Part shown: one piece after another, positions 20,899 through 48,439 of the stretch | Position numbering within the stretch: the stretch's first letter is position 1 | How the letters are laid out: the number at the start of each line of letters is the position of its first letter | NCBI GenBank assembly: GCA_026395815.1 | Contig: JAPLXZ010000011.1 | Span: forward strand, 1,638 to 65,637 | Direction: 5' to 3' | Origin: Candidatus Pacearchaeota archaeon | Lineage (GTDB): Archaea; Nanobdellota; Nanobdellia; Pacearchaeales; GW2011-AR1 | Length of the DNA stretch: 64,000 nucleotides | Made by a program: the position numbers and the translations under genes | The notes under the pieces: model-generated | What the model saw: the letters and a program-made list of their open reading frames with translations, nothing else | Databases searched by the model: none | What the model was told of the DNA's origin: nothing

Positions 20899-20967
20899 TA
20901 GTTAGATTTAATTAGAATCTATAAGATTATTATAATCTATAACATCTAAAAATTCGTGATTATAAAA

Positions 20968-21086
20968 TGAGCCTGCACGGATTTGAACCGTGGACCCCTG
21001 CCTTCCCGAATTCTGAAAGATTTCAGCAAATGGAACTTGTTCCGATTTATCAGAGCAGTGCTCTAACCGGGCTGAGCTACAGGCTC
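20968..21086 (-). tRNA. tRNA-Ile(GAU) with ~44-nt intron at 37/38
   Basis: Acceptor GAGCCUG/CAGGCUC, D arm GCUC/GAGC, anticodon stem CUGCU/GGCAG, loop CUGAUA|intron|A, T arm CACGG-UUCAAAU-CCGUG. The intron spans roughly 21004..21047. Confidence 0.8.
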
Positions 21087-21164
21087 ACAACATCTCATAG
21101 AAGTGAAGTTATTTAAAAGTTTTTGTACCCTAAGTTTTAAAAACCAATTTTATTTAAGATTAAT

Positions 21165-40298: not shown

Positions 40299-40544
40299 TT
40301 AAATAGATTGTTTCTCTTCTACTTCTAAATGTTCTTTATGTGTTATCCCAAAAATTGAAATAAAGAGTATTATAAAATACATAACCAATCCATAAAGGCA
40401 AGCAGGCAAATTCAAGAAAAGAGTGCATCTCCCACCAATTGGACAAGTACCTGCAAAAAGCTCAAAATATGAAAGAAAACCCGAGAACAAAACCCCAAGT
40501 ATCGAAATTATCAAAATTATTTTGAGTGCTGTTTTCGTTTTCAT
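40299..40544 (-). CDS. Small membrane protein with paired cysteines (VKOR/DsbB-like?)
   Basis: Two to three TM helices with CPIGGRC and PACLYG. Its start overlaps the aspS stop by 4 nt. Confidence 0.45.
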   Translation of the reverse strand: MKTKTALKIILIISILGVLFSGFLSYFELFAGTCPIGGRCTLFLNLPACLYGLVMYFIILFISIFGITHKEHLEVEEKQSI

Positions 40545-41839
40545 GGTGTTAATCTATCCCTATCACGGGGAAACATTGTAGCTTCCTTAACATTGTCCAA
40601 CCCGCAAATTTGTTGTGTTATCCTTTCTAGGCCAATACTCCATCCAGAATGTGGGGGAGCTCCATATCTAAATGAATCAATGTAATCTTTAAAATTCTTT
40701 GGATTTAGGCCCTTCGCTTTCAATCTTTCTATTAATAATTCTGGAAGATGAATTCTCTGTCCACCAGAAGAAATTTCCACTCCAAGATACAAAGCATCAA
40801 ACCCTTCGCTTAACTTGGCATCTGCTTTCTCGTCTTTTGGCATTATATAAAATGGTTTTATAGAAGATGGCCAAGAGTAAGTAAATACTATATCTCCCTT
40901 ATACATAGAACATAATTGCCTCTCTTGTTCTGGTGTGAAATCCTCTCCAATTTTTCCACCCACTTTTTTTATTGCGTCTTCATAACTAAGATAAACTCCC
41001 TTTGGAATTTTCAAATCTTTTATTCCAAGTATTTTTAATTCTTTTTTGCAATTTTCAAGAACTCTTTTAATAATAGCTATTACAACTTCTTCTAATTTTT
41101 TCATGATGCTCATTTGATCAGTGAAAGCTACTTCAATGTCCATCTGTCTTATTTCATTAATATGCCTTGGAGTGTTGTGCTTTTCAGCCCTCCAAACAGG
41201 GGTTATCATGAAAGTTTTTTCCATAGAACATGCAATCATCTGTTTGTATAATTGTGGGCTCTGAGCCAAATAAGCTTTTTTCTCAAAGTATTGAACAGGA
41301 AATAATTCTGTTCCTCCTTCACTGGCAGCTGAAATAACACAAGGTGGCTGCATTTCAATAAATCCTTTTTTATAAAAGTGTTCTCTAAAAGAATTAGCAA
41401 TTTCATTTTGTATTTTGAAGATAGCTTGAGTTCTTTCTCTATGAAAATCTAAAAACCTATAATCCAATCTTTTAGGCAATTCTGTTTTAGAAAATTCAGA
41501 AATGTCTATTGGAATTTCTTCTGCATTGTTTAACAAGGTAATTTCTTCTGGAACAATTTCTCTGCCTCCTGGCGCTTGTTTCGATTCTTTTACTTCTCCT
41601 TTAACATAAATAACAGATTCCCTTGAAATTTTATCCATCATATCAAAAATCTTTTTATCTACCTTGCTTTCAGCAGCAGTAATTTGTATCTCTGCTGTTA
41701 TGTCTCTTAAAACAAGAAATTTTATCTTTCCTAAAGCACGGGTATTTTTGACCCATCCTGCAACAGTAACTTCTTTTTCCTTTTTTGCAAAAACATCTGC
41801 AATTGTAATTCTATCTTCGTTCAATTTTTTTAAATCCAT
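40541..41839 (-). CDS. aspS: Aspartyl-tRNA synthetase, archaeal type
   Basis: N-terminal OB (VAGWVKNTRALGKIKFLVLRD), class II motifs including VWRAEKHNTPRHINE and GAPPHSGWSIGLERI. Confidence 0.95.
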   Translation of the reverse strand: MDLKKLNEDRITIADVFAKKEKEVTVAGWVKNTRALGKIKFLVLRDITAEIQITAAESKVDKKIFDMMDKISRESVIYVKGEVKESKQAPGGREIVPEEITLLNNAEEIPIDISEFSKTELPKRLDYRFLDFHRERTQAIFKIQNEIANSFREHFYKKGFIEMQPPCVISAASEGGTELFPVQYFEKKAYLAQSPQLYKQMIACSMEKTFMITPVWRAEKHNTPRHINEIRQMDIEVAFTDQMSIMKKLEEVVIAIIKRVLENCKKELKILGIKDLKIPKGVYLSYEDAIKKVGGKIGEDFTPEQERQLCSMYKGDIVFTYSWPSSIKPFYIMPKDEKADAKLSEGFDALYLGVEISSGGQRIHLPELLIERLKAKGLNPKNFKDYIDSFRYGAPPHSGWSIGLERITQQICGLDNVKEATMFPRDRDRLTP

Positions 41840-42184: not shown

Positions 42185-43645
42185 TCATAAATATTTCTTT
42201 ATCATCTCCCTTGCCTCTTTTCCGCTTATCCCTTTAACTTCTTTCATCACAAGTCCCATATATGCATTTTCAGAAAGTCCTGGCTTGCTTTTTATTATTT
42301 TAGCTATTTTCTCCTCGATTACATTAAAGTCTTCTTTCTTGAAAATAACAGCATCCTTAACATCCACGCCCACGATTATTTTTCCTAACACTCCTTTTAT
42401 TTGCTGTTCAGAAATTTTTTTGTCTCTTAAAGATTCAATAACAAATGTGATTGCATCTTTGTTCAGTATTTTTTCTACTTCCTTGATTGATTTCTTTTCG
42501 TGGCTTGCTATTTCCTTTGGGAAGATTAACAAAACTTTTGCAATTAAAACCGGATTATTTAATATTTTCAATAATTCCTTGAACTCGTTTATTTTATTCT
42601 CTTTAAACAATAATTGAATCATCTCTTGATTTAATCCTGTCTTATTTAATTCTTCTTCTATCTCATCTCTGAGTTTAGGCAGAGTTTTCTTAACCTCATT
42701 TATCAAATCTCTTGATATTTTTAACAAAGGTAAGTCTGTTTCAGGATACATTCTTGCAGCTCCTGACAATGGACGCAAGAATTCAGTTTCTCCATTAGGC
42801 AAAGCGTTCCTTACTTCTTTTTGCACTGGTTTTTTTTCATTCAACAAGGCTAATTGTCTGTTAATCTCCTTATTGATTGTTTGCACCATCATGCTTGGGT
42901 CTTGAAATCCTTTTATTTCAACTCTGTTTCCCCCTTTTACTGAAAGATTCAAATCTTGTCTTATTGTCCCTATTCCCCTCTTGACTCTGCAACTTCTCAA
43001 AACTTTCCCTATATACAAAGCAACTTCCCTTACTTGTTCTGCATTTCTCATATCGGGAGCAGTAGCAATCTCGATTAAGGGAATTCCTAGTCTGTCAAGC
43101 CTGTAAATAGTTCTGTCGTCTTTTCGTTCTATAATTCTTGCTGCATCTTCTTCAAGACAAATGCTATCGATTTCGACTCTTCCGTTTTTTGTTATAATCC
43201 ATCCTCCTTGAGCAAGTAATACTGTTCTTTGAAATCCAGAAGTATTGCTTCCATCAATGACTGTTTTTCTCATAATTTGGCTTATAGGAAATATTTTCGC
43301 ATTAAGAAATATTGAAATTTCCAAGGCTATTTTAAGAGCATCAATGTTAATTTCGTAAGGAGGAGATTCATCAAGCTCAACTAAACAAGTAGTATCATAT
43401 CCTTCATAAACAAAATCTTTCTTTTTTTCTGATTCATGTTTTGCAGCAATATCAATCTCTCCTCCCTCTCCCGCAACAGCATGAAGATTTCTCTTCAAAG
43501 TAAAATCCGGAGCATCTTGTCTTAACAAAGAAGGACAATTGCAGAAAAGTTTCTTTGTATCAAGCTGCTGGTGGATTTCTAATCCTGATTTAAACCCTAA
43601 TTTTTCATAATCAATTTTATTTTGTTTAGAGTTTTCTTCTAGCAT
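42185..43645 (-). CDS. gatE: Glu-tRNA(Gln) amidotransferase subunit E
   Basis: GLEIHQQLDTKKLFCNC, CLVELDESPP, VIDGSNTSGFQRT, LEEDAARII, DRLGIPLIEIATAPD and GTIRQDLNLSV match GatE rather than GatB. It is shorter (486 aa) than the ~600-aa forms I recall. Confidence 0.88.
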   Translation of the reverse strand: MLEENSKQNKIDYEKLGFKSGLEIHQQLDTKKLFCNCPSLLRQDAPDFTLKRNLHAVAGEGGEIDIAAKHESEKKKDFVYEGYDTTCLVELDESPPYEINIDALKIALEISIFLNAKIFPISQIMRKTVIDGSNTSGFQRTVLLAQGGWIITKNGRVEIDSICLEEDAARIIERKDDRTIYRLDRLGIPLIEIATAPDMRNAEQVREVALYIGKVLRSCRVKRGIGTIRQDLNLSVKGGNRVEIKGFQDPSMMVQTINKEINRQLALLNEKKPVQKEVRNALPNGETEFLRPLSGAARMYPETDLPLLKISRDLINEVKKTLPKLRDEIEEELNKTGLNQEMIQLLFKENKINEFKELLKILNNPVLIAKVLLIFPKEIASHEKKSIKEVEKILNKDAITFVIESLRDKKISEQQIKGVLGKIIVGVDVKDAVIFKKEDFNVIEEKIAKIIKSKPGLSENAYMGLVMKEVKGISGKEAREMIKKYL

Positions 43646-43675
43646 GAAATAGAAAGTAAGAAAGAGTTTATTAAA

Positions 43676-44440
43676 TTAATTATCAGAGTTTTCAAAATAG
43701 TAATCTACTTCAGATTCGATAGCAAAAGAAGAAACTCTCCTATTGCTTCTTTTAAGTTCCAGTTCTAATTCTTGGATTACAGTTTCTTTATTAACTCTTT
43801 TTTGTGAATCTTTCAATCCTAAGATTACATTTTTTACATCTGAAACATTAACAACTCCTTTTCTCTTTACAGAACTTGTCCATAATTTTGCAAATTCCTG
43901 AAGATTATAATTTTTTATTACAAGCCCTTCTTTATTCCCATAACGATATTTGCTTCCTTCAATCATTTTTGTAAGTTCATTAAAATCAGTTTTTCCTTTG
44001 AATAAAACTTCAAGATAAATCAAATTCTCAATTTCCATATCCTTAAGAATTTCTCTTGCTTTCTCATAAGGAATAAATCTCTTAGAACCTAAATCAAAAA
44101 GGTCTATCATAAAAAATTTATTTGTAAATTCTGGTTTGTATTCCAAAGTGTGTTTAGAAGTCCATTCTCCGTATATAACCAAATCTTCTAAAAGATTATA
44201 GAAACTATAATTTCCTAAAGCCCATTTATTAAAATCTTTAAACCACTCTTGACTAAAAAATTTCTCTCTTGTTAGAAAATGAGCTCTGCTTCCGCTTAAA
44301 ATTCTTCCATTAATTTTTCTAATCTGAACATTTCCACCGTCAACTTTTTCATAAACTTCAACTAGATTATCTAATATACATGGAACTTCATCCAAATGAG
44401 GAATTCTTCTGTATTTAACAAAATGAGGATTATCTTGCAT
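43676..44440 (-). CDS. ATP-dependent RNA ligase-like nucleotidyltransferase (Rnl2/pfam RNA_ligase type)
   Basis: Motif I EKVDGGN (KxDGxN), motif III VIYGEW, IIIa FFMIDLFD, IV EGLVIK. 254 aa. Confidence 0.65.
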   Translation of the reverse strand: MQDNPHFVKYRRIPHLDEVPCILDNLVEVYEKVDGGNVQIRKINGRILSGSRAHFLTREKFFSQEWFKDFNKWALGNYSFYNLLEDLVIYGEWTSKHTLEYKPEFTNKFFMIDLFDLGSKRFIPYEKAREILKDMEIENLIYLEVLFKGKTDFNELTKMIEGSKYRYGNKEGLVIKNYNLQEFAKLWTSSVKRKGVVNVSDVKNVILGLKDSQKRVNKETVIQELELELKRSNRRVSSFAIESEVDYYFENSDN

Positions 44441-45074
44441 TTTTTATTCTTGGAGACAAAGTGGTGATATTCTTATATCCTAAATCATTTAGCATTTCCA
44501 CCCCTTTAAAAATGTGTTCATCAGAAGAAAAAATAGCAACGGGATTTGCTTTTCTGCCTTCTTTAGAAAAATATTCTGAGAATAAAAGAGCGCTATCAAG
44601 TATTTCTCTGTCTACATCAGAAAAACCTTCTAAATCCTTTTTGCAGTTTTCAGCGCATGAAAGTTTTGTAACCCAATAAACCTTATATCTTTCGCTATCA
44701 TCAGAAACATTACTTAATGCAAATTCCTTTAATCTTTCATAATCTCCTAAAAATTTGTCTATTAAAGGACACACTGTTTCTTTGATCTCCTTGTTATTTC
44801 CATTTAACTTTACACAATAATGTTTAGTTATTTCTGAATGAGTAGAAGGAGAAACTAATGTTTGATATTTTCCTGCAAAGTTCATTAAAAAGTGGTCTGC
44901 ATAGATTTCTTGAAGAGGTATTTCTTTTTTTCCTCTTTGCCTTATTTCTTCTTCTTTTGAAGATTTGCATATGTCAATAATTGCGCTTGTGTCTAAGAAA
45001 ACAATTGGCAGAGTTTTGCCTACAAATGCTTTTTCTGCATCTCTCATCATATCCCTTAAGGTCTTTATTGTCAT
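44430..45074 (-). CDS. PIN-domain nuclease-like protein
   Basis: IVFLDTSAIIDI (first Asp), SEITKH, SDVDREILDSALL and FSSDEHIF fit the four-acidic PIN layout. Its 3' end overlaps the RNA-ligase start by 11 nt. Confidence 0.6.
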   Translation of the reverse strand: MTIKTLRDMMRDAEKAFVGKTLPIVFLDTSAIIDICKSSKEEEIRQRGKKEIPLQEIYADHFLMNFAGKYQTLVSPSTHSEITKHYCVKLNGNNKEIKETVCPLIDKFLGDYERLKEFALSNVSDDSERYKVYWVTKLSCAENCKKDLEGFSDVDREILDSALLFSEYFSKEGRKANPVAIFSSDEHIFKGVEMLNDLGYKNITTLSPRIKNAR

Positions 45075-45158
45075 AGAAATATTAACCTCTTTTCATTTAA
45101 AAGCCTTTCTATTTGTTCCCCCTTCATAGTTACAACAAGATAGATAATATGGATAATT

Positions 45159-45557
45159 TCATAAAATTCTTACAATTTCGCCATTCTTGTCCAATTCAAT
45201 AAAATGATTTACCTGTTCATTTCTGTAAGCATCACACTGGTTTTCTATTAAATCATCTTCACTTGTTCTTGGCACATGAACTATATCAACAGCATAATCT
45301 TCACATGTTCCTAAACACTGAGAATTAACTTCTTCTGCAACTTCATTAAACTTTCCAATAGCACAATTTATTACATTTTGTTGTTTTAAAACATAGTTTG
45401 GAATTTCGGCAGGATTTCCATGTTTAATCCAGATTCCTTTCTCATCTTTAATCCAACTGTCTTCATCTCCTCCTATAACAAATCTCACAAAAAGCCATCC
45501 GACTATTAATAATAAAACAATAATCCCAATTGTTAAATAACTCTTTTTTATTTTCAT
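45159..45557 (-). CDS. Signal-anchored small Cys-containing protein
   Basis: N-terminal TM (LTIGIIVLLLIVGWLFVRFVIGG) and four Cys in the ectodomain. Its ATG overlaps the gatD stop. Confidence 0.5.
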   Translation of the reverse strand: MKIKKSYLTIGIIVLLLIVGWLFVRFVIGGDEDSWIKDEKGIWIKHGNPAEIPNYVLKQQNVINCAIGKFNEVAEEVNSQCLGTCEDYAVDIVHVPRTSEDDLIENQCDAYRNEQVNHFIELDKNGEIVRIL

Positions 45558-46837
45558 TATTCTATTCTATTATTCAATTCCCCTGCAACATTTTCAAGCA
45601 TTTTCTCCTTTACAATCTTCTTGTCTTTTTTCCAGTCTTCATGTCCTAAAACCCATGAAAGCTTTACAAAAGCTGTTTCAGCAAGCATGTCTTCTAAGTA
45701 AATAACGCCTGTTGCTAAAATTTCTCGCCCATTACTATAGACTAAAGGATCTACTCTGCCATTGATGCATTGGGAAACAGCACAAACTATAATCCCTTTT
45801 TTCTGAATCTCTTCGAGTTTTTTTGTCCATGGTTTTCTTGCTCTTTTTGTGGGGGCATGTCCTAATCCAGAAAGCTCAAGAACAATCCCCTTGTACTTTT
45901 CTTTGGCATAATAATCCAAGATATTTGGATTTTGTCCTGGATAGATTTTTACTAAGGCAACTTTATCTTCAAATTTCACATCAGTTTTAACTTTATTCTT
46001 ATTTCTTGTTTTGTAATTTGAAATTAGTTCTATTCTGTCTGGAAAAATTCTTGCATATGGCTTTCCATTTACAACTTTAAAAGCATCTCTTCTTGAAGTA
46101 TGCAATTTCCTTACTTTCACTCCAGGCATAGCATAGCAGTAATCATCATTTGAGGAAGCATGCCCAACAAGCATTACTTCGGCCATGTCTGAAATCGCAG
46201 CTAAAGCAGAACACTGCAAATTTAAATTAGCATCTGAACTTGCTCTATCCACGCTTCTTTGGCTGTAAGTTAAAACAACTGGTTTATTTAAATTTCTAAG
46301 AAAAAAACTCAAAGCAGAAGAAGTGTAATGTAAGGTATCTGTTCCATGTGTTATTATTATTCCCTTGATATTATTATCTTTTAGAAGTTTTTCAGCGACC
46401 CGGGCAATTTTTTGCCAGTCTTTGAAATCCATATCTTCACTGGCTTTCATAAAAGGAATTTCAACTTTTGCTACATTAACTTTATTAAAAAGTTCCGGAT
46501 AAAATTTAAACAGACTTTCTGGAGAAGTCAAAGGATGAACACCTCCTGTTTTTGAATCATAACTGGAAGCGATTGTTCCTCCTGTGATTATCATTGCGAT
46601 GTTTGGTTTTTCATTATCTTTTTTTATCTGTATTTCTTCTTCTTTTTCTTTTGCTTTACCTAAAACATTTATTTTCAGAATATCTTTTTTATTGAATCCT
46701 ATATTATATCCAGAATCCAACTTCAAAAGAACAATTCCTTTTTCATCATCAGGAACTTCCAAGAGAATTCCCTCATAAATCACTCTTGTAAGATGAATCT
46801 CAACATAATCTCCAGGCACAGCATCTGTCTTAATCAT
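45557..46837 (-). CDS. gatD: Glu-tRNA(Gln) amidotransferase subunit D
   Basis: Asparaginase motifs ITGGTIASS and ITHGTDTL after the N-terminal GatD-specific domain. Confidence 0.92.
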   Translation of the reverse strand: MIKTDAVPGDYVEIHLTRVIYEGILLEVPDDEKGIVLLKLDSGYNIGFNKKDILKINVLGKAKEKEEEIQIKKDNEKPNIAMIITGGTIASSYDSKTGGVHPLTSPESLFKFYPELFNKVNVAKVEIPFMKASEDMDFKDWQKIARVAEKLLKDNNIKGIIITHGTDTLHYTSSALSFFLRNLNKPVVLTYSQRSVDRASSDANLNLQCSALAAISDMAEVMLVGHASSNDDYCYAMPGVKVRKLHTSRRDAFKVVNGKPYARIFPDRIELISNYKTRNKNKVKTDVKFEDKVALVKIYPGQNPNILDYYAKEKYKGIVLELSGLGHAPTKRARKPWTKKLEEIQKKGIIVCAVSQCINGRVDPLVYSNGREILATGVIYLEDMLAETAFVKLSWVLGHEDWKKDKKIVKEKMLENVAGELNNRIE

Positions 46838-46908: not shown

Positions 46909-48270
46909 ATGGTTAAGATAGGGTTGGAAATCCATGGATATATCAATACGAACGAGAAACTCTTTTGCAGATGCAGAGCGCAACATGGCTTAAAGTTCTC
47001 AAAACCGAATACAAATATTTGTCCTGTATGCACCAGCCAGCCAGGAAGCAAACCAATGCTCCCAAATAAGACTGCAATTGACAAAGCAATTCAGATTGGA
47101 TTAATTTTAAAATGCAAAATAAATTCAAAGTTTATCTGGCAAAGAAAACATTATGATTGGCCAGACCTTCCAAAGGGTTATCAGGATACTGTTTCAGGGG
47201 GGCATGCTATTCCAATAGGAGAAAAAGGAGAGTTTTTAGGAATTAGAATTAGGGAAGCGCATTTAGAAGAAGATCCTGCTGCATGGAATCCAAAAACAGG
47301 AGAAATAGATTACAACAGAAGCGGCTTGCCTTTGATAGAAATTGTTACAGAGCCTGATTTTTCTTCATCTCAGCAAGTTATTGATTGGCTTAAACAATTA
47401 GTAATAACATTAGGATACATAAAAACATTGGACAAATCTGCAGGAATAAAAGCAGATGTTAATATTTCTCTGCCTGAATTAAATGGAAAGAGGATTGAAG
47501 TAAAAAATGTGAATTCATTAAAGAATATTAAAGCACTTATTGAAATTGAAATTGAAAGGCAAAAATCCGATACTCCAAAAATCCAAGAAACAAGGATGTT
47601 TGATGAAGCAAAAGGAATAACAATAAAGATGAGAGAAAAAGAGCAAACAGATGATTATAGATTTATTTCAGATCCTGATTTGCCTGTTGTTATAATCAAA
47701 CAGTCAAGAATAGAAAAAATAAAATCTGCAATTCCTGAAACTCCTTTTGAAAAACTTCAAAGGTTAATAAAAAAATATAATATAGAGAAAAAATCAGCAG
47801 AGGTTTTAACTAAAAAACTCGAAATTGTAGAATTTTTTGAGAAGATTGTAGAAAAAGTGAATGCTAAACTCGCTGTTCCTTGGGTAACTATAGAACTTCT
47901 TTCTGTTTTGAATTACAACAAAAAAGAACTTGATGAAGTCGACATTTCTCCAGAACACTTCATTGAACTTCTTAAACTTGTAGAAAATAAAAAGATTACA
48001 GAACTTAAGGCAAAAGATATCTTAAGAAAATTCATTCCTAAATCTTTTTCTCCCTTAAAAGAAGCAGAAAAACAAGGAAAAATTTCTTCTGAAAATGAAT
48101 TGGAAAAGATTTGCAGGCTTGTTTTGAGCGAAAATCCAAAAGCAATTCAAGATTATAAGGAAGGAAAACAAGAATCCCTTCATTTTTTAATTGGGAAAAT
48201 AATGCAAAAGACGAACAAACGTGCGGATTTCAAAACTACGAGGGAAATTTTGGAAAGAATTTTAAAATAA
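46909..48270 (+). CDS. gatB: Asp/Glu-tRNA amidotransferase subunit B
   Basis: IGLEIHGYI, CPVCTSQPGSKP, RKHYDWPDLPKGYQ, LEEDPA and GLPLIEIVTEPD, plus a C-terminal GatB/YqeY tail. Confidence 0.93.
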   Translation: MVKIGLEIHGYINTNEKLFCRCRAQHGLKFSKPNTNICPVCTSQPGSKPMLPNKTAIDKAIQIGLILKCKINSKFIWQRKHYDWPDLPKGYQDTVSGGHAIPIGEKGEFLGIRIREAHLEEDPAAWNPKTGEIDYNRSGLPLIEIVTEPDFSSSQQVIDWLKQLVITLGYIKTLDKSAGIKADVNISLPELNGKRIEVKNVNSLKNIKALIEIEIERQKSDTPKIQETRMFDEAKGITIKMREKEQTDDYRFISDPDLPVVIIKQSRIEKIKSAIPETPFEKLQRLIKKYNIEKKSAEVLTKKLEIVEFFEKIVEKVNAKLAVPWVTIELLSVLNYNKKELDEVDISPEHFIELLKLVENKKITELKAKDILRKFIPKSFSPLKEAEKQGKISSENELEKICRLVLSENPKAIQDYKEGKQESLHFLIGKIMQKTNKRADFKTTREILERILK

Positions 48271-48271
48271 A

Positions 48272-48389
48272 TGAGCCTGCGAGGATTCGAACCCCGATTA
48301 ACCGGTATCTCCGAAGTTTGCTTGCATATGGATTATCTCGCAAGCTTCCTCGCCGAAGCCGGTTGTGCTGTCCATTACACCACAGGCCC
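48272..48389 (-). tRNA. tRNA-Arg(UCG) with ~46-nt intron at 37/38
   Basis: Acceptor GGGCCUG/CAGGCUC, anticodon stem ACCGG/CCGGU, loop CUUCGG|intron|A, T arm CGGGG-UUCGAAU-CCUCG. The intron (about 48307..48352) contains the stem GCUUGC/GCAAGC. The gene starts 2 nt after the gatB stop, on the opposite strand. Confidence 0.8.
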
Positions 48390-48439
48390 AAAAAACTAAG
48401 TAGGATTAGGTTTTTATATCTTATTTGTCTTGTAAATTA

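Follow-up and report, generated by a model that had tools for sequence, protein, structure and literature searches.

The subject of this work is a pair of overlapping genes in a stretch of 64,000 nucleotides (nt) from a Candidatus Pacearchaeota archaeon (GenBank assembly GCA_026395815.1, contig JAPLXZ010000011.1, positions 1,638 to 65,637 of the forward strand); this whole stretch, AT-rich with about 31% G+C, is called the window below. On the minus strand of the window, a gene at 44430-45074 encodes a protein of 214 amino acids (aa) that is predicted to be a PIN-like metallonuclease, and the gene that follows it at 43676-44440 encodes a 254-aa ATP-dependent RNA ligase of the Pfam family PF09414. 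Exact protein matches for the nuclease/ligase pair carry the locus tags NTU63_02600 and NTU63_02595. The two genes share 11 nt, ATGCAAGATAA (44430-44440, minus strand), with the ATG of the ligase gene sitting within the last codons of the nuclease gene. Our leading interpretation, which we hold tentatively and with a little less than even confidence, is that in DPANN archaea the pair is a housekeeping cassette, conserved and co-translated, whose PIN-like metal-dependent endonuclease and minimal ATP-dependent RNA ligase trim and seal, or excise and rejoin, a stable RNA.

The ligase matches PF09414 with 65.8 bits against a cut-off of 27 (E 6.9e-18), and the same domain is present in all 32 of its homologues. 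In a phmmer search of the PDB sequences Pab1020 was found at 3.6e-5, and the solved proteins nearest to it in sequence are the Rnl3 enzymes from Pyrococcus abyssi and Palaeococcus pacificus. An AlphaFold2 model built from the 32 homologues has a predicted local distance difference test score (pLDDT) of 90.3 and shows the nucleotidyltransferase fold common to ligases and capping enzymes, as a core of residues ~1-190 followed by a C-terminal three-helix module (199-251). Foldseek places the model next to Rnl3, Rnl5 (from Naegleria), Rnl2, Rnl1 and Trl1, with E values of 2e-9 to 1e-5; there were 51 PDB matches at E <= 1e-3, of which 50 were listed, with RNA ligases in the first 40 places and DNA ligases after them. 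Ten residues are invariant in the 32-sequence alignment (K32, D34, G35, N37, E92, D113, E171, G172, K176 and K185), and G50 and R52 are kept in at least 90% of the homologues. These residues hold the familiar motifs: KVDGGN corresponds to K32/D34/G35/N37, YGEW to E92 and EGLVIK to E171/G172/K176, and motifs I, Ia, III, IIIa, IV and V are all conserved, in common with Rnl3. A mutational study of MthRnl found K97 (the adenylylated lysine), N102, T117-R118, E151, F175, E231 and K246 to be important (PMC4797309). In an hhalign comparison these positions are occupied by K32, N37, S51-R52, E92, F109, E171 and K185 of the 254-aa protein, respectively. The ligase should be active, since its catalytic residues map onto the important ones of MthRnl, and K32 is the predicted site of adenylylation.

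It is worth pointing out that the 254-aa protein is nevertheless not an Rnl3. The characterized Rnl3 enzymes (Pab1020, MthRnl and the P. pacificus enzyme) are about 380 aa long and are built from four domains (N-terminal, nucleotidyltransferase, dimerization and Lig_C), an architecture which the shorter protein does not share, as it has neither the N-terminal domain nor the C-terminal Lig_C domain. Rnl3 ligases act as homodimers and circularize single-stranded RNA. It aligns with the full-length Rnl3 profile at 98.3% probability over Rnl3 positions 88-319 of 401, stays below the threshold of the Rnl3 model TIGR01209 (33 bits against a cut-off of 136.9), and gave no match to PF18330 in the Pfam scan. 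The position of MthRnl R104 is taken by Q39, and an invariant arginine, R41, is found two residues further on. As judged from these comparisons, the protein is a PF09414 ligase whose closest characterized relatives are the Rnl3 enzymes, yet which falls outside Rnl3 because ligases encoded on viral contigs score higher than Rnl3 on its hidden Markov model (HMM), with up to 128 against at most 42 bits. A scan of the ligase with PADLOC and PHROGs returned nothing meaningful.

The nuclease is far less like anything in the databases, and the 214-aa protein gave no match in Pfam, NCBIfam, PADLOC, PHROGs or the PDB sequences. It has 14 close homologues, and an exhaustive profile search gathered 114 representative clusters at E <= 1e-3, nearly all of them 200-255 aa in length. 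In an alignment of 85 of these sequences, in which the mean column identity is only 18%, the invariant columns are D28, E81, D155 and D185 and no others, while T29, I33, D34, H85, E96, S152 and H187 are conserved in at least 90%. The four invariant residues belong to the motifs FLDTS (D28), SEITKH (E81), DREILDSA (D155) and SSDEH (D185), and the family as a whole can be recognized by the signature D28-T29-[GS]..I-D34, E81...H85, E96, R129-Y-D-x-Y133-W, K145-K146, S152-x-x-D155 and S183-x-D185-x-H187. The AlphaFold2 model (pLDDT 86.8) is an α/β fold of alternating strands and helices, in which D28 follows strand 1, the helix behind strand 2 carries E81, a helix opens with D155, and D185 follows a strand; as modelled, this placement of acidic residues is the PIN pattern. 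The model also has a helical hairpin inserted at residues ~94-142, made of helices 94-120 and 127-142.

Further indications come from the individual members of the family. When the 85 sequences were scanned with Pfam, PIN_4 was matched weakly by 11 (best E 7.8e-5), PIN_12, again weakly, by 6 and PIN by 2, with PIN_2, PIN_6, PIN_8 and NYN each in single members; none of the unrelated Pfam families was matched by more than one of the 85. Among the best PDB folds for the model, although non-significant (E >= 0.19, TM-scores of 0.38-0.47 on the target), PIN domains recur, namely 3ix7, 2hwx, 4mj7, 2dok and 1v8p, with SMG6, Utp23, EST1A and PAE2754 among these PIN proteins, and the best folds in BFVD (E > 0.1) are flap endonuclease, PIN_53EXO and XRN. 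We conclude that the 214-aa protein is a member of the PIN-like superfamily that belongs to no curated family; sequence comparison makes it the founder of a family that is specific to DPANN and comprises about 114 clusters. A preliminary description of this locus, made by a model from the letters of the window, had proposed a PIN-like protein and an RNA ligase at this site. The RNA-ligase assignment is well borne out by the PF09414 match and by Foldseek matches to RNA ligases at ~1e-9, and the ligase motifs I, III and IV it named are invariant in the 32 homologues. The PIN assignment stands at the level of the superfamily, on the invariant acidic set and the weak PIN matches of the members, and goes no further, as no curated family is matched; the four acidic positions picked out by the description turned out to be the sole invariant columns in 85 sequences.

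The two proteins are tied together by the constancy of their arrangement. Using the ligase alignment to scan one genome per species (GTDB), we obtained 28 loci, and all open reading frames (ORFs) in them were searched with HMMs for the adjacency test. The loci come from metagenome-assembled genomes of Nanoarchaeota, Pacearchaeota and Woesearchaeota, plus contigs bearing the same cassette under other labels (two "archaeon", one uncultured archaeon, one Candidatus Nanoanaerosalina, one Omnitrophota and one Methanosarcinales). In all 27 loci that have upstream sequence, the next gene 5' of the ligase gene, on its strand, is that of the nuclease; the 28th begins at a contig end and was left out of the count. 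Two distant nuclease members (E 5.9e-4 and 4.6e-14 to the seed profile) that were looked up directly also have a PF09414 gene directly downstream. In seven other loci with called genes, the two genes overlap by up to 23 nt or are separated by up to 14 nt. There is one copy of the cassette per locus, syntenic across ~30 DPANN loci, and no lone nuclease or lone ligase was met among the informative ones.

The surroundings of the pair are more variable. In most of the related loci gatE follows the ligase gene, at a distance of 30-41 nt in L001, L003, L007 and L199, and gatD lies 5' of the pair in most, often with unrelated genes intervening; across loci the neighbours include gatD, gatE, aspS and the genes of peptidyl-tRNA hydrolase (PTH2) and dihydrouridine synthase (Dus). 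The pair is intact in four loci that have no gatD/gatE. There it is accompanied by PTH2 and two AspRS-type synthetases (L006), by adenylate kinase and Dus (L027), by PAC2 and a tyrosine recombinase (L033), or by Orc1/Cdc6 and a full-length ATP-dependent DNA ligase (L034, 3026-7614). Between the window and the distant loci, identity is 25-36% for the nuclease and 36-52% for the ligase, compared with 57-78% for gatD and 52-75% for gatE. Spearman correlations of the percent identities among nuclease, ligase, gatD and gatE are modest, 0.17-0.69, and not decisive for co-inheritance. Two of the contigs, L009 (labelled Candidatus Omnitrophota bacterium) and L033 (uncultured Methanosarcinales archaeon), are probably mis-binned; L009 has archaeal gatD/gatE alongside a DPANN-type cassette. 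In L026 (748-1393) the PIN-like gene is broken into two overlapping ORFs, a split that reflects a frameshift, a pseudogene or an assembly error. Genes similar to LAGLIDADG homing endonucleases are found a few kb from the cassette in L005 (10812-12081), between the aspS region and gatA, and in L006 (4029-4931).

In the window itself, the minus-strand run begins with gatD (45557-46837), the upstream context gene, which scores 451.8 bits against the NCBIfam GatD cut-off of 310. It is followed by an ORF of 132 aa (45159-45557), predicted to be membrane-anchored, which overlaps with gatD at its stop by 1 nt. This ORF has no family match, has homologues that were detected only in L001, L002 and L012 among the related loci, and lies outside the conserved core. 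A spacer of 84 nt (45075-45158, minus strand) then precedes the nuclease gene and could be the site of an internal promoter. On the other side, 30 nt (43646-43675, minus strand) separate the ligase stop from the ATG of gatE (42185-43645, minus strand), which encodes a short form of 486 aa and scores 488.9 bits against 456 for the NCBIfam GatE equivalog. Further along the same strand is aspS (40541-41839), and gatB (46909-48270) is on the plus strand, divergent from the gatD run. As the usual gene 3' of the pair, gatE is taken here as its context and not as a proven component. The window's gatE aligns to the 630-aa GatE profile in two stretches, and it seems to lack the domain that is inserted in canonical GatE; gatE is short in all the related DPANN loci, with 457-496 aa where complete. 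The gene order gatD, 132-aa, 214-aa, 254-aa, gatE on one strand, as given in the preliminary description, agrees with the ORF list, and its 11-nt overlap and 30-nt distance to gatE are just what we measured. The tight coupling it read from the overlap extends to the relatives, where junctions lie between -23 and +14 nt and where the gene-neighbourhood comparison found the pair kept in all informative DPANN loci, 27 out of 27. Its picture of a tRNA-centred operon is right for gatD, gatE and aspS, which share the strand of the pair, and wrong for gatB, which is on the opposite strand.

The pairing of a PIN nuclease with an RNA ligase has a precedent, although the preliminary description knew of no such toxin/antitoxin or repair family. 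The PIN_5 proteins (PF08745) were later recognized as HARP, a minimal protein-only RNase P that removes the 5' leader of pre-tRNA as a dodecameric assembly. A census of the PIN superfamily had noted that PIN_5 co-occurs with the TIGR01209 RNA ligase, a tRNA methyltransferase and a tRNA synthetase (Matelska et al. 2017, PMC5499597), and a survey of 2025 found Rnl3 in 89% of 751 HARP-positive genomes, with Rnl3 occurring only in HARP-positive genomes (Seshadri & Gopalan, PMC12153264). In that survey one archaeal case in three has HARP and Rnl3 co-localized, for the most part on opposite strands and in tandem in only 10 cases; the linkage is confined to halophiles, thermophiles and alkaliphiles (PMC12153264). 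No DPANN order is among the HARP carriers of the 2025 survey (PMC12153264), and HARP was absent from all DPANN in a survey of 2019 (PMC6380272). Our own counts reproduce the co-localization independently, with a candidate HARP gene convergent to Rnl3 and ~0.4-1.3 kb downstream of it in 37 of 80 metagenome Rnl3 loci (L055-L118). In three other loci of Thermococcales type (L036-L038), Rnl3 is called as two genes, nucleotidyltransferase and Lig_C, and is flanked by ribosomal protein L16 on one side and by the L3-L4-L23 operon on the other; there is no HARP in its vicinity. The literature we searched contained no description of the DPANN pair, an absence that is no proof of there being none.

For comparison with the DPANN nuclease, a HARP profile was made from 20 of the 37 recovered genes, three of which were confirmed as PIN_5 at E ~1e-65. 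The two families align in hhalign with P 7e-4 and a probability of 26%, and 58 columns are aligned confidently. The local alignment places D28-T29-S30 on HARP D10-T11-S12 and E81 on E56, which is invariant in HARP; the relaxed local alignment further matches S152/D155 with S145/D148 and D185 with D166, and the helical insertions of both families lie between the same elements. Only local and relaxed-local modes were read, since the global mode misplaces the N-terminus. In control comparisons either family against the ligase gave P >= 0.3, and against one VapC the DPANN family gave 0.32 and HARP 0.24, a weak test as the target was a single sequence. The Aquifex equivalents of HARP D10-T11-S12, S145/D148 and D166 are D7-T8-S9, S139/D142 and D160, which mutagenesis identified as catalytic, and the helical domain of HARP binds the tRNA elbow (PMC12217051). 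To judge from the profiles, then, the resemblance of the DPANN nuclease to HARP is genuine yet weak.

Taken as systems, the DPANN cassette and HARP-Rnl3 have much in common. Both consist of a PIN-type nuclease of about 200 aa with a helical insertion that has an ATP-dependent RNA ligase as its genomic partner; D-T-S, S-x-x-D and D, the catalytic positions of the nucleases, align in the weak profile match, the ligase cores are homologous (98% in hhalign), and the neighbourhoods of both are translation-related. There are also differences. The DPANN nuclease has two histidines, H85 and H187, with no aligned residue in HARP, and the counterpart of its E81 (E56) is not among the listed catalytic residues of HARP; conversely, the counterparts of HARP D138 and E141 are not conserved in the DPANN family. 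The 214-aa protein does not match PF08745, and PIN_5 is not among the families matched by the 85 members. The DPANN genes are strictly tandem, and overlap in the window, whereas those of HARP and Rnl3 lie in most cases on opposite strands. The one system is hosted by DPANN archaea, the other by other archaea. By analogy, and possibly through distant homology, the cassette may be the DPANN counterpart of HARP (PIN_5)-Rnl3.

From the gene structure, the family assignments, the residue conservation and the strict adjacency described above, all of them observed directly, we infer nuclease activity and its end chemistry, a preference for RNA over DNA, a physical interaction of the two proteins and the identity of their substrate in the following way. 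The residues D28, E81, D155 and D185 of the nuclease would bind a divalent metal, and the enzyme would cleave a nucleic acid with structure. The likeliest target would be a stable RNA that serves translation, for instance a tRNA precursor or a small guide RNA; tRNA is a plausible substrate, though the pair is also found away from gatD/gatE. The helical hairpin may grip the substrate through the conserved R-Y-D-x-Y-W and KK motifs, which are located in and after it. Two-metal PIN nucleases leave a 5'-phosphate and a 3'-OH, and these are the ends that ATP-dependent ligases join. The cut made by the DPANN nuclease would be expected to yield such ends, and HARP likewise leaves a 5'-phosphate (PMC12217051). 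The cassette encodes no end-healing enzyme, and on this scheme none would be needed, because the products of a PIN nuclease already suit the ligase; kinase and phosphoesterase would both be dispensable. The ligase would be adenylylated on K32, transfer AMP to the 5'-phosphate and then join it to the 3'-OH, so that sealing would amount either to circularization or to rejoining after excision or trimming. The minimal ligase probably relies on its nuclease partner to locate the RNA, since the substrate-binding domains of Rnl1, Rnl2, Rnl3 and Rnl5 are missing from it; Rnl4 similarly needs its partner Hen1 for substrate handling (PMC4797309). A more specific version of the scheme, which we think rather unlikely, is that an as yet unrecognized HARP-like lineage makes 5'-phosphate and 3'-OH ends on tRNA or another stable RNA, and that a dedicated minimal ligase, brought in by the nuclease, circularizes or rejoins the product.

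Several results weigh against the trim-and-seal cassette that we favour. The fold of the nuclease model found no match at E <= 0.001 in PDB or BFVD by Foldseek, and the family profile retrieved from the PDB sequences only a designed coiled-coil at E 1.8. The likeness to HARP is weak, with 26% probability over 58 confident columns. The pair diverges much faster than gatD and gatE, which could mean a weaker constraint or a role in conflict. Finally, the ligase HMM scores viral-contig ligases at up to 128 bits and Rnl3 at 42 at most, and a FEN-type 5'-3' exonuclease is encoded ~1.5 kb upstream of the viral ligase in 11 of 79 loci; because of these viral relatives and the exonuclease near them, the substrate could be DNA or an RNA-DNA hybrid molecule.

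How, then, does the favoured reading compare with other explanations? Closest to it, and in fact a sub-case of it, is a protein-only RNase P-like role, in which a divergent enzyme of HARP type matures the 5' (possibly also the 3') ends of tRNA and the ligase serves as an aid to repair, adenylylation or circularization, as proposed for HARP-Rnl3. The D-T-S...S-x-x-D...D layout, a helical insertion placed like the tRNA-elbow-binding domain of HARP, a size near that of HARP (214 against ~200 aa), and the tRNA-centred surroundings (gatD/gatE, aspS, PTH2 and Dus) all point in this direction, and one HARP matches the nuclease-family HMM marginally (E 0.028). In the reverse direction, however, the HARP family HMM finds no match in the nuclease family, PF08745 is not matched, and HARP structures are outside the top 50 fold matches; of the conserved E81, H85 and H187, only E81 is aligned (with E56), and this is not a listed HARP catalytic residue. 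Moreover, every archaeal genome surveyed encodes at least one protein of the RNA-based RNase P (PMC6380272), so there is no RNase P gap to fill, and on balance we find this role doubtful. Less probable again is the processing of flaps and nicks, with a FEN-like PIN enzyme trimming a 5' flap or RNA primer through its helical arch and the ligase sealing the nick in replication or repair. The top BFVD folds, all weak, would suit this idea, as would the sealing of nicks by the Rnl5 and Rnl2 relatives, the viral DNA-metabolism genes around the nearest relatives of the ligase, with their 5'-3' exonuclease nearby in 11 of 79, and the place of the L034 pair between Orc1/Cdc6 and a DNA ligase. Yet in most loci it is aminoacyl-tRNA operons that hold the pair, the FEN match is not significant in PDB or BFVD, and the nuclease has 4 to 6 conserved acidic residues, fewer than the 7 to 8 of FEN enzymes; in L034, a role in sealing DNA would be redundant because a standard ATP-dependent DNA ligase adjoins the pair.

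A looser possibility is that the two enzymes are functionally unrelated and that their order is kept by inertia. It is generally known that the "über-operons" of translation often carry unrelated genes, and the support for a physical interaction comes from adjacency. The adjacency, however, outlasts every rearrangement seen, with gatD, gatE and inserted genes varying around it; neither gene stands alone in the informative loci and the junction is always tight (-23 to +14 nt), which makes such an accident improbable. A toxin/antidote or defence module, the addiction-type reading raised in the preliminary description, would consist of a PIN ribotoxin and a ligase that reverses or neutralizes its damage. 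Many prokaryotic PIN proteins are indeed toxins, the layout is one of two genes with overlapping frames, the pair diverges fast relative to its neighbours, and a toxin-antitoxin origin has been proposed for HARP (PMC12153264, PMC6380272). Against this, the cassette holds the same operon position in ~30 divergent, syntenic loci with gatD/gatE 52-78% identical to those of the window, it is kept in reduced genomes, and the patchy, mobile, multi-copy spread expected of toxin-antitoxin systems is not seen. There is no small DNA-binding antitoxin, the partner of the 214-aa PIN protein being a 254-aa enzyme; PADLOC and PHROG searches gave no match; and the PIN family is found in none of 80 viral loci with related ligases. 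In the analogous HARP-Rnl3 pair of T. kodakarensis, a ligase knockout was not toxic (PMC12153264), which by analogy also speaks against an antidote. We regard this reading as quite unlikely: the synteny is strict, reduced genomes retain the cassette, no partner of antitoxin type accompanies the nuclease, and the viral contigs do not carry it. Directly 3' of gatE in L199 (8082-8695) there does occur a canonical pair of VapB, with 74 aa, and VapC, with 130 aa (PF01850), and it is unlike the PIN-ligase pair. Least probable of all is an alternative route of tRNA splicing, in which the PIN protein would stand in for the splicing endonuclease or work beside it, and the ATP-dependent ligase would take the place of RtcB. 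The window does contain intron-bearing tRNA genes, and the 5'-phosphate and 3'-OH of a PIN cut would fit the ligase. These genes, which were detected by Rfam and, once introns were allowed, by ARAGORN, are tRNA-Pro(GGG) (20967-21087, minus strand), with a 44-nt intron at 37/38, and tRNA-Arg(TCG) (48271-48390, minus strand), directly after gatB, with a 46-nt intron at 38/39; the default run of ARAGORN missed both. The archaeal splicing endonuclease, however, leaves a 2',3'-cyclic phosphate and a 5'-OH, which an ATP-dependent ligase cannot join without healing enzymes. As both introns are at canonical positions, as expected for the endonuclease/RtcB route, and the endonuclease ends are unusable by this ligase, the joining of tRNA introns suggested in the preliminary description is chemically mismatched and we consider it very improbable. 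The absence of RtcB from the window, to which the description had also appealed, carries no weight, for 64 kb says nothing about the whole genome; a regular-expression search of the window and 35 loci for RtcB motifs gave no match, which is uninformative and no evidence of absence.

The favoured cassette can also be set beside other known systems. The DPANN nuclease shares four acidic residues at canonical positions with PIN_4-type domains (PhoH2, SMG6) and with VapC toxins, and the PIN_4 type is the one to which most of the weak Pfam matches of its members belong and which has 3ix7 and SMG6 among the top folds. Unlike these proteins, it has an insertion of a 50-residue helical hairpin and an extra N-terminal helix, and it comes without an antitoxin partner and without a PhoH fusion. 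With bacterial Pnkp-Hen1 (Rnl4) and T4 Pnkp/Rnl1 the cassette has in common an RNA ligase acting on breaks made by a nuclease, and probably also the reliance of this ligase on a partner protein for handling its substrate. Those systems, however, mend 2',3'-cyclic-phosphate/5'-OH breaks inflicted by a foreign or suicidal nuclease and carry kinase, phosphatase and methyltransferase activities, whereas the DPANN cassette has its own nuclease and no end-healing enzyme. The combination of FEN-1 or a 5'-3' exonuclease with a ligase offers a PIN-like nuclease with a helical arch followed by sealing, a likeness seen in the weak fold matches; unlike in FEN-1 systems, there is no significant similarity, and the DPANN context is in most loci centred on tRNA and not on replication.

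In our reading, the DPANN pair is a minimal and tightly coupled variant of a newly recognized partnership of nuclease and ligase. It is a second, independent pairing of a PIN protein bearing a helical insertion with an RNA ligase, in a lineage reported to be without HARP, and its coupling is far stricter than that of HARP-Rnl3, as the genes are tandem and overlapping and neither is met alone. Because the DPANN case is both independent and stricter, it suggests that the partnership is functional and not a coincidence of habitat. Should the HARP-like cut-and-rejoin idea hold, the coupling of nuclease and ligase would be ancient and general in archaeal RNA maturation and no peculiarity of extremophiles, and the DPANN pair would offer the simplest setting for learning what HARP-Rnl3 does. 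At 214 and 254 aa both proteins are small, and a single operon encodes them, which makes them suited to reconstitution. The PIN-like family adds some 114 sequence clusters that lie outside all curated libraries, and the minimal architecture of the RNA ligase may be of use as a compact ligation enzyme.

The viral ligases deserve a few words of their own. Outside DPANN, the proteins that come nearest to the window's ligase in HMM score are uncharacterized ligases of about 320 aa from viral contigs in IMG/VR, and these viral PF09414 ligases (L119-L198) are nearer to the DPANN ligase than any solved ligase is; one of them, from L167, found no homologue among the PDB sequences. The nuclease family was found in 0 of the 80 viral loci, and no partner dominates, the most recurrent being present in at most 14 of 79. 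The neighbours of the viral ligases are phage DNA-metabolism genes, which include HNH, dGTP diphosphohydrolase, ribonucleotide reductase and the FEN-type 5'-3' exonuclease.

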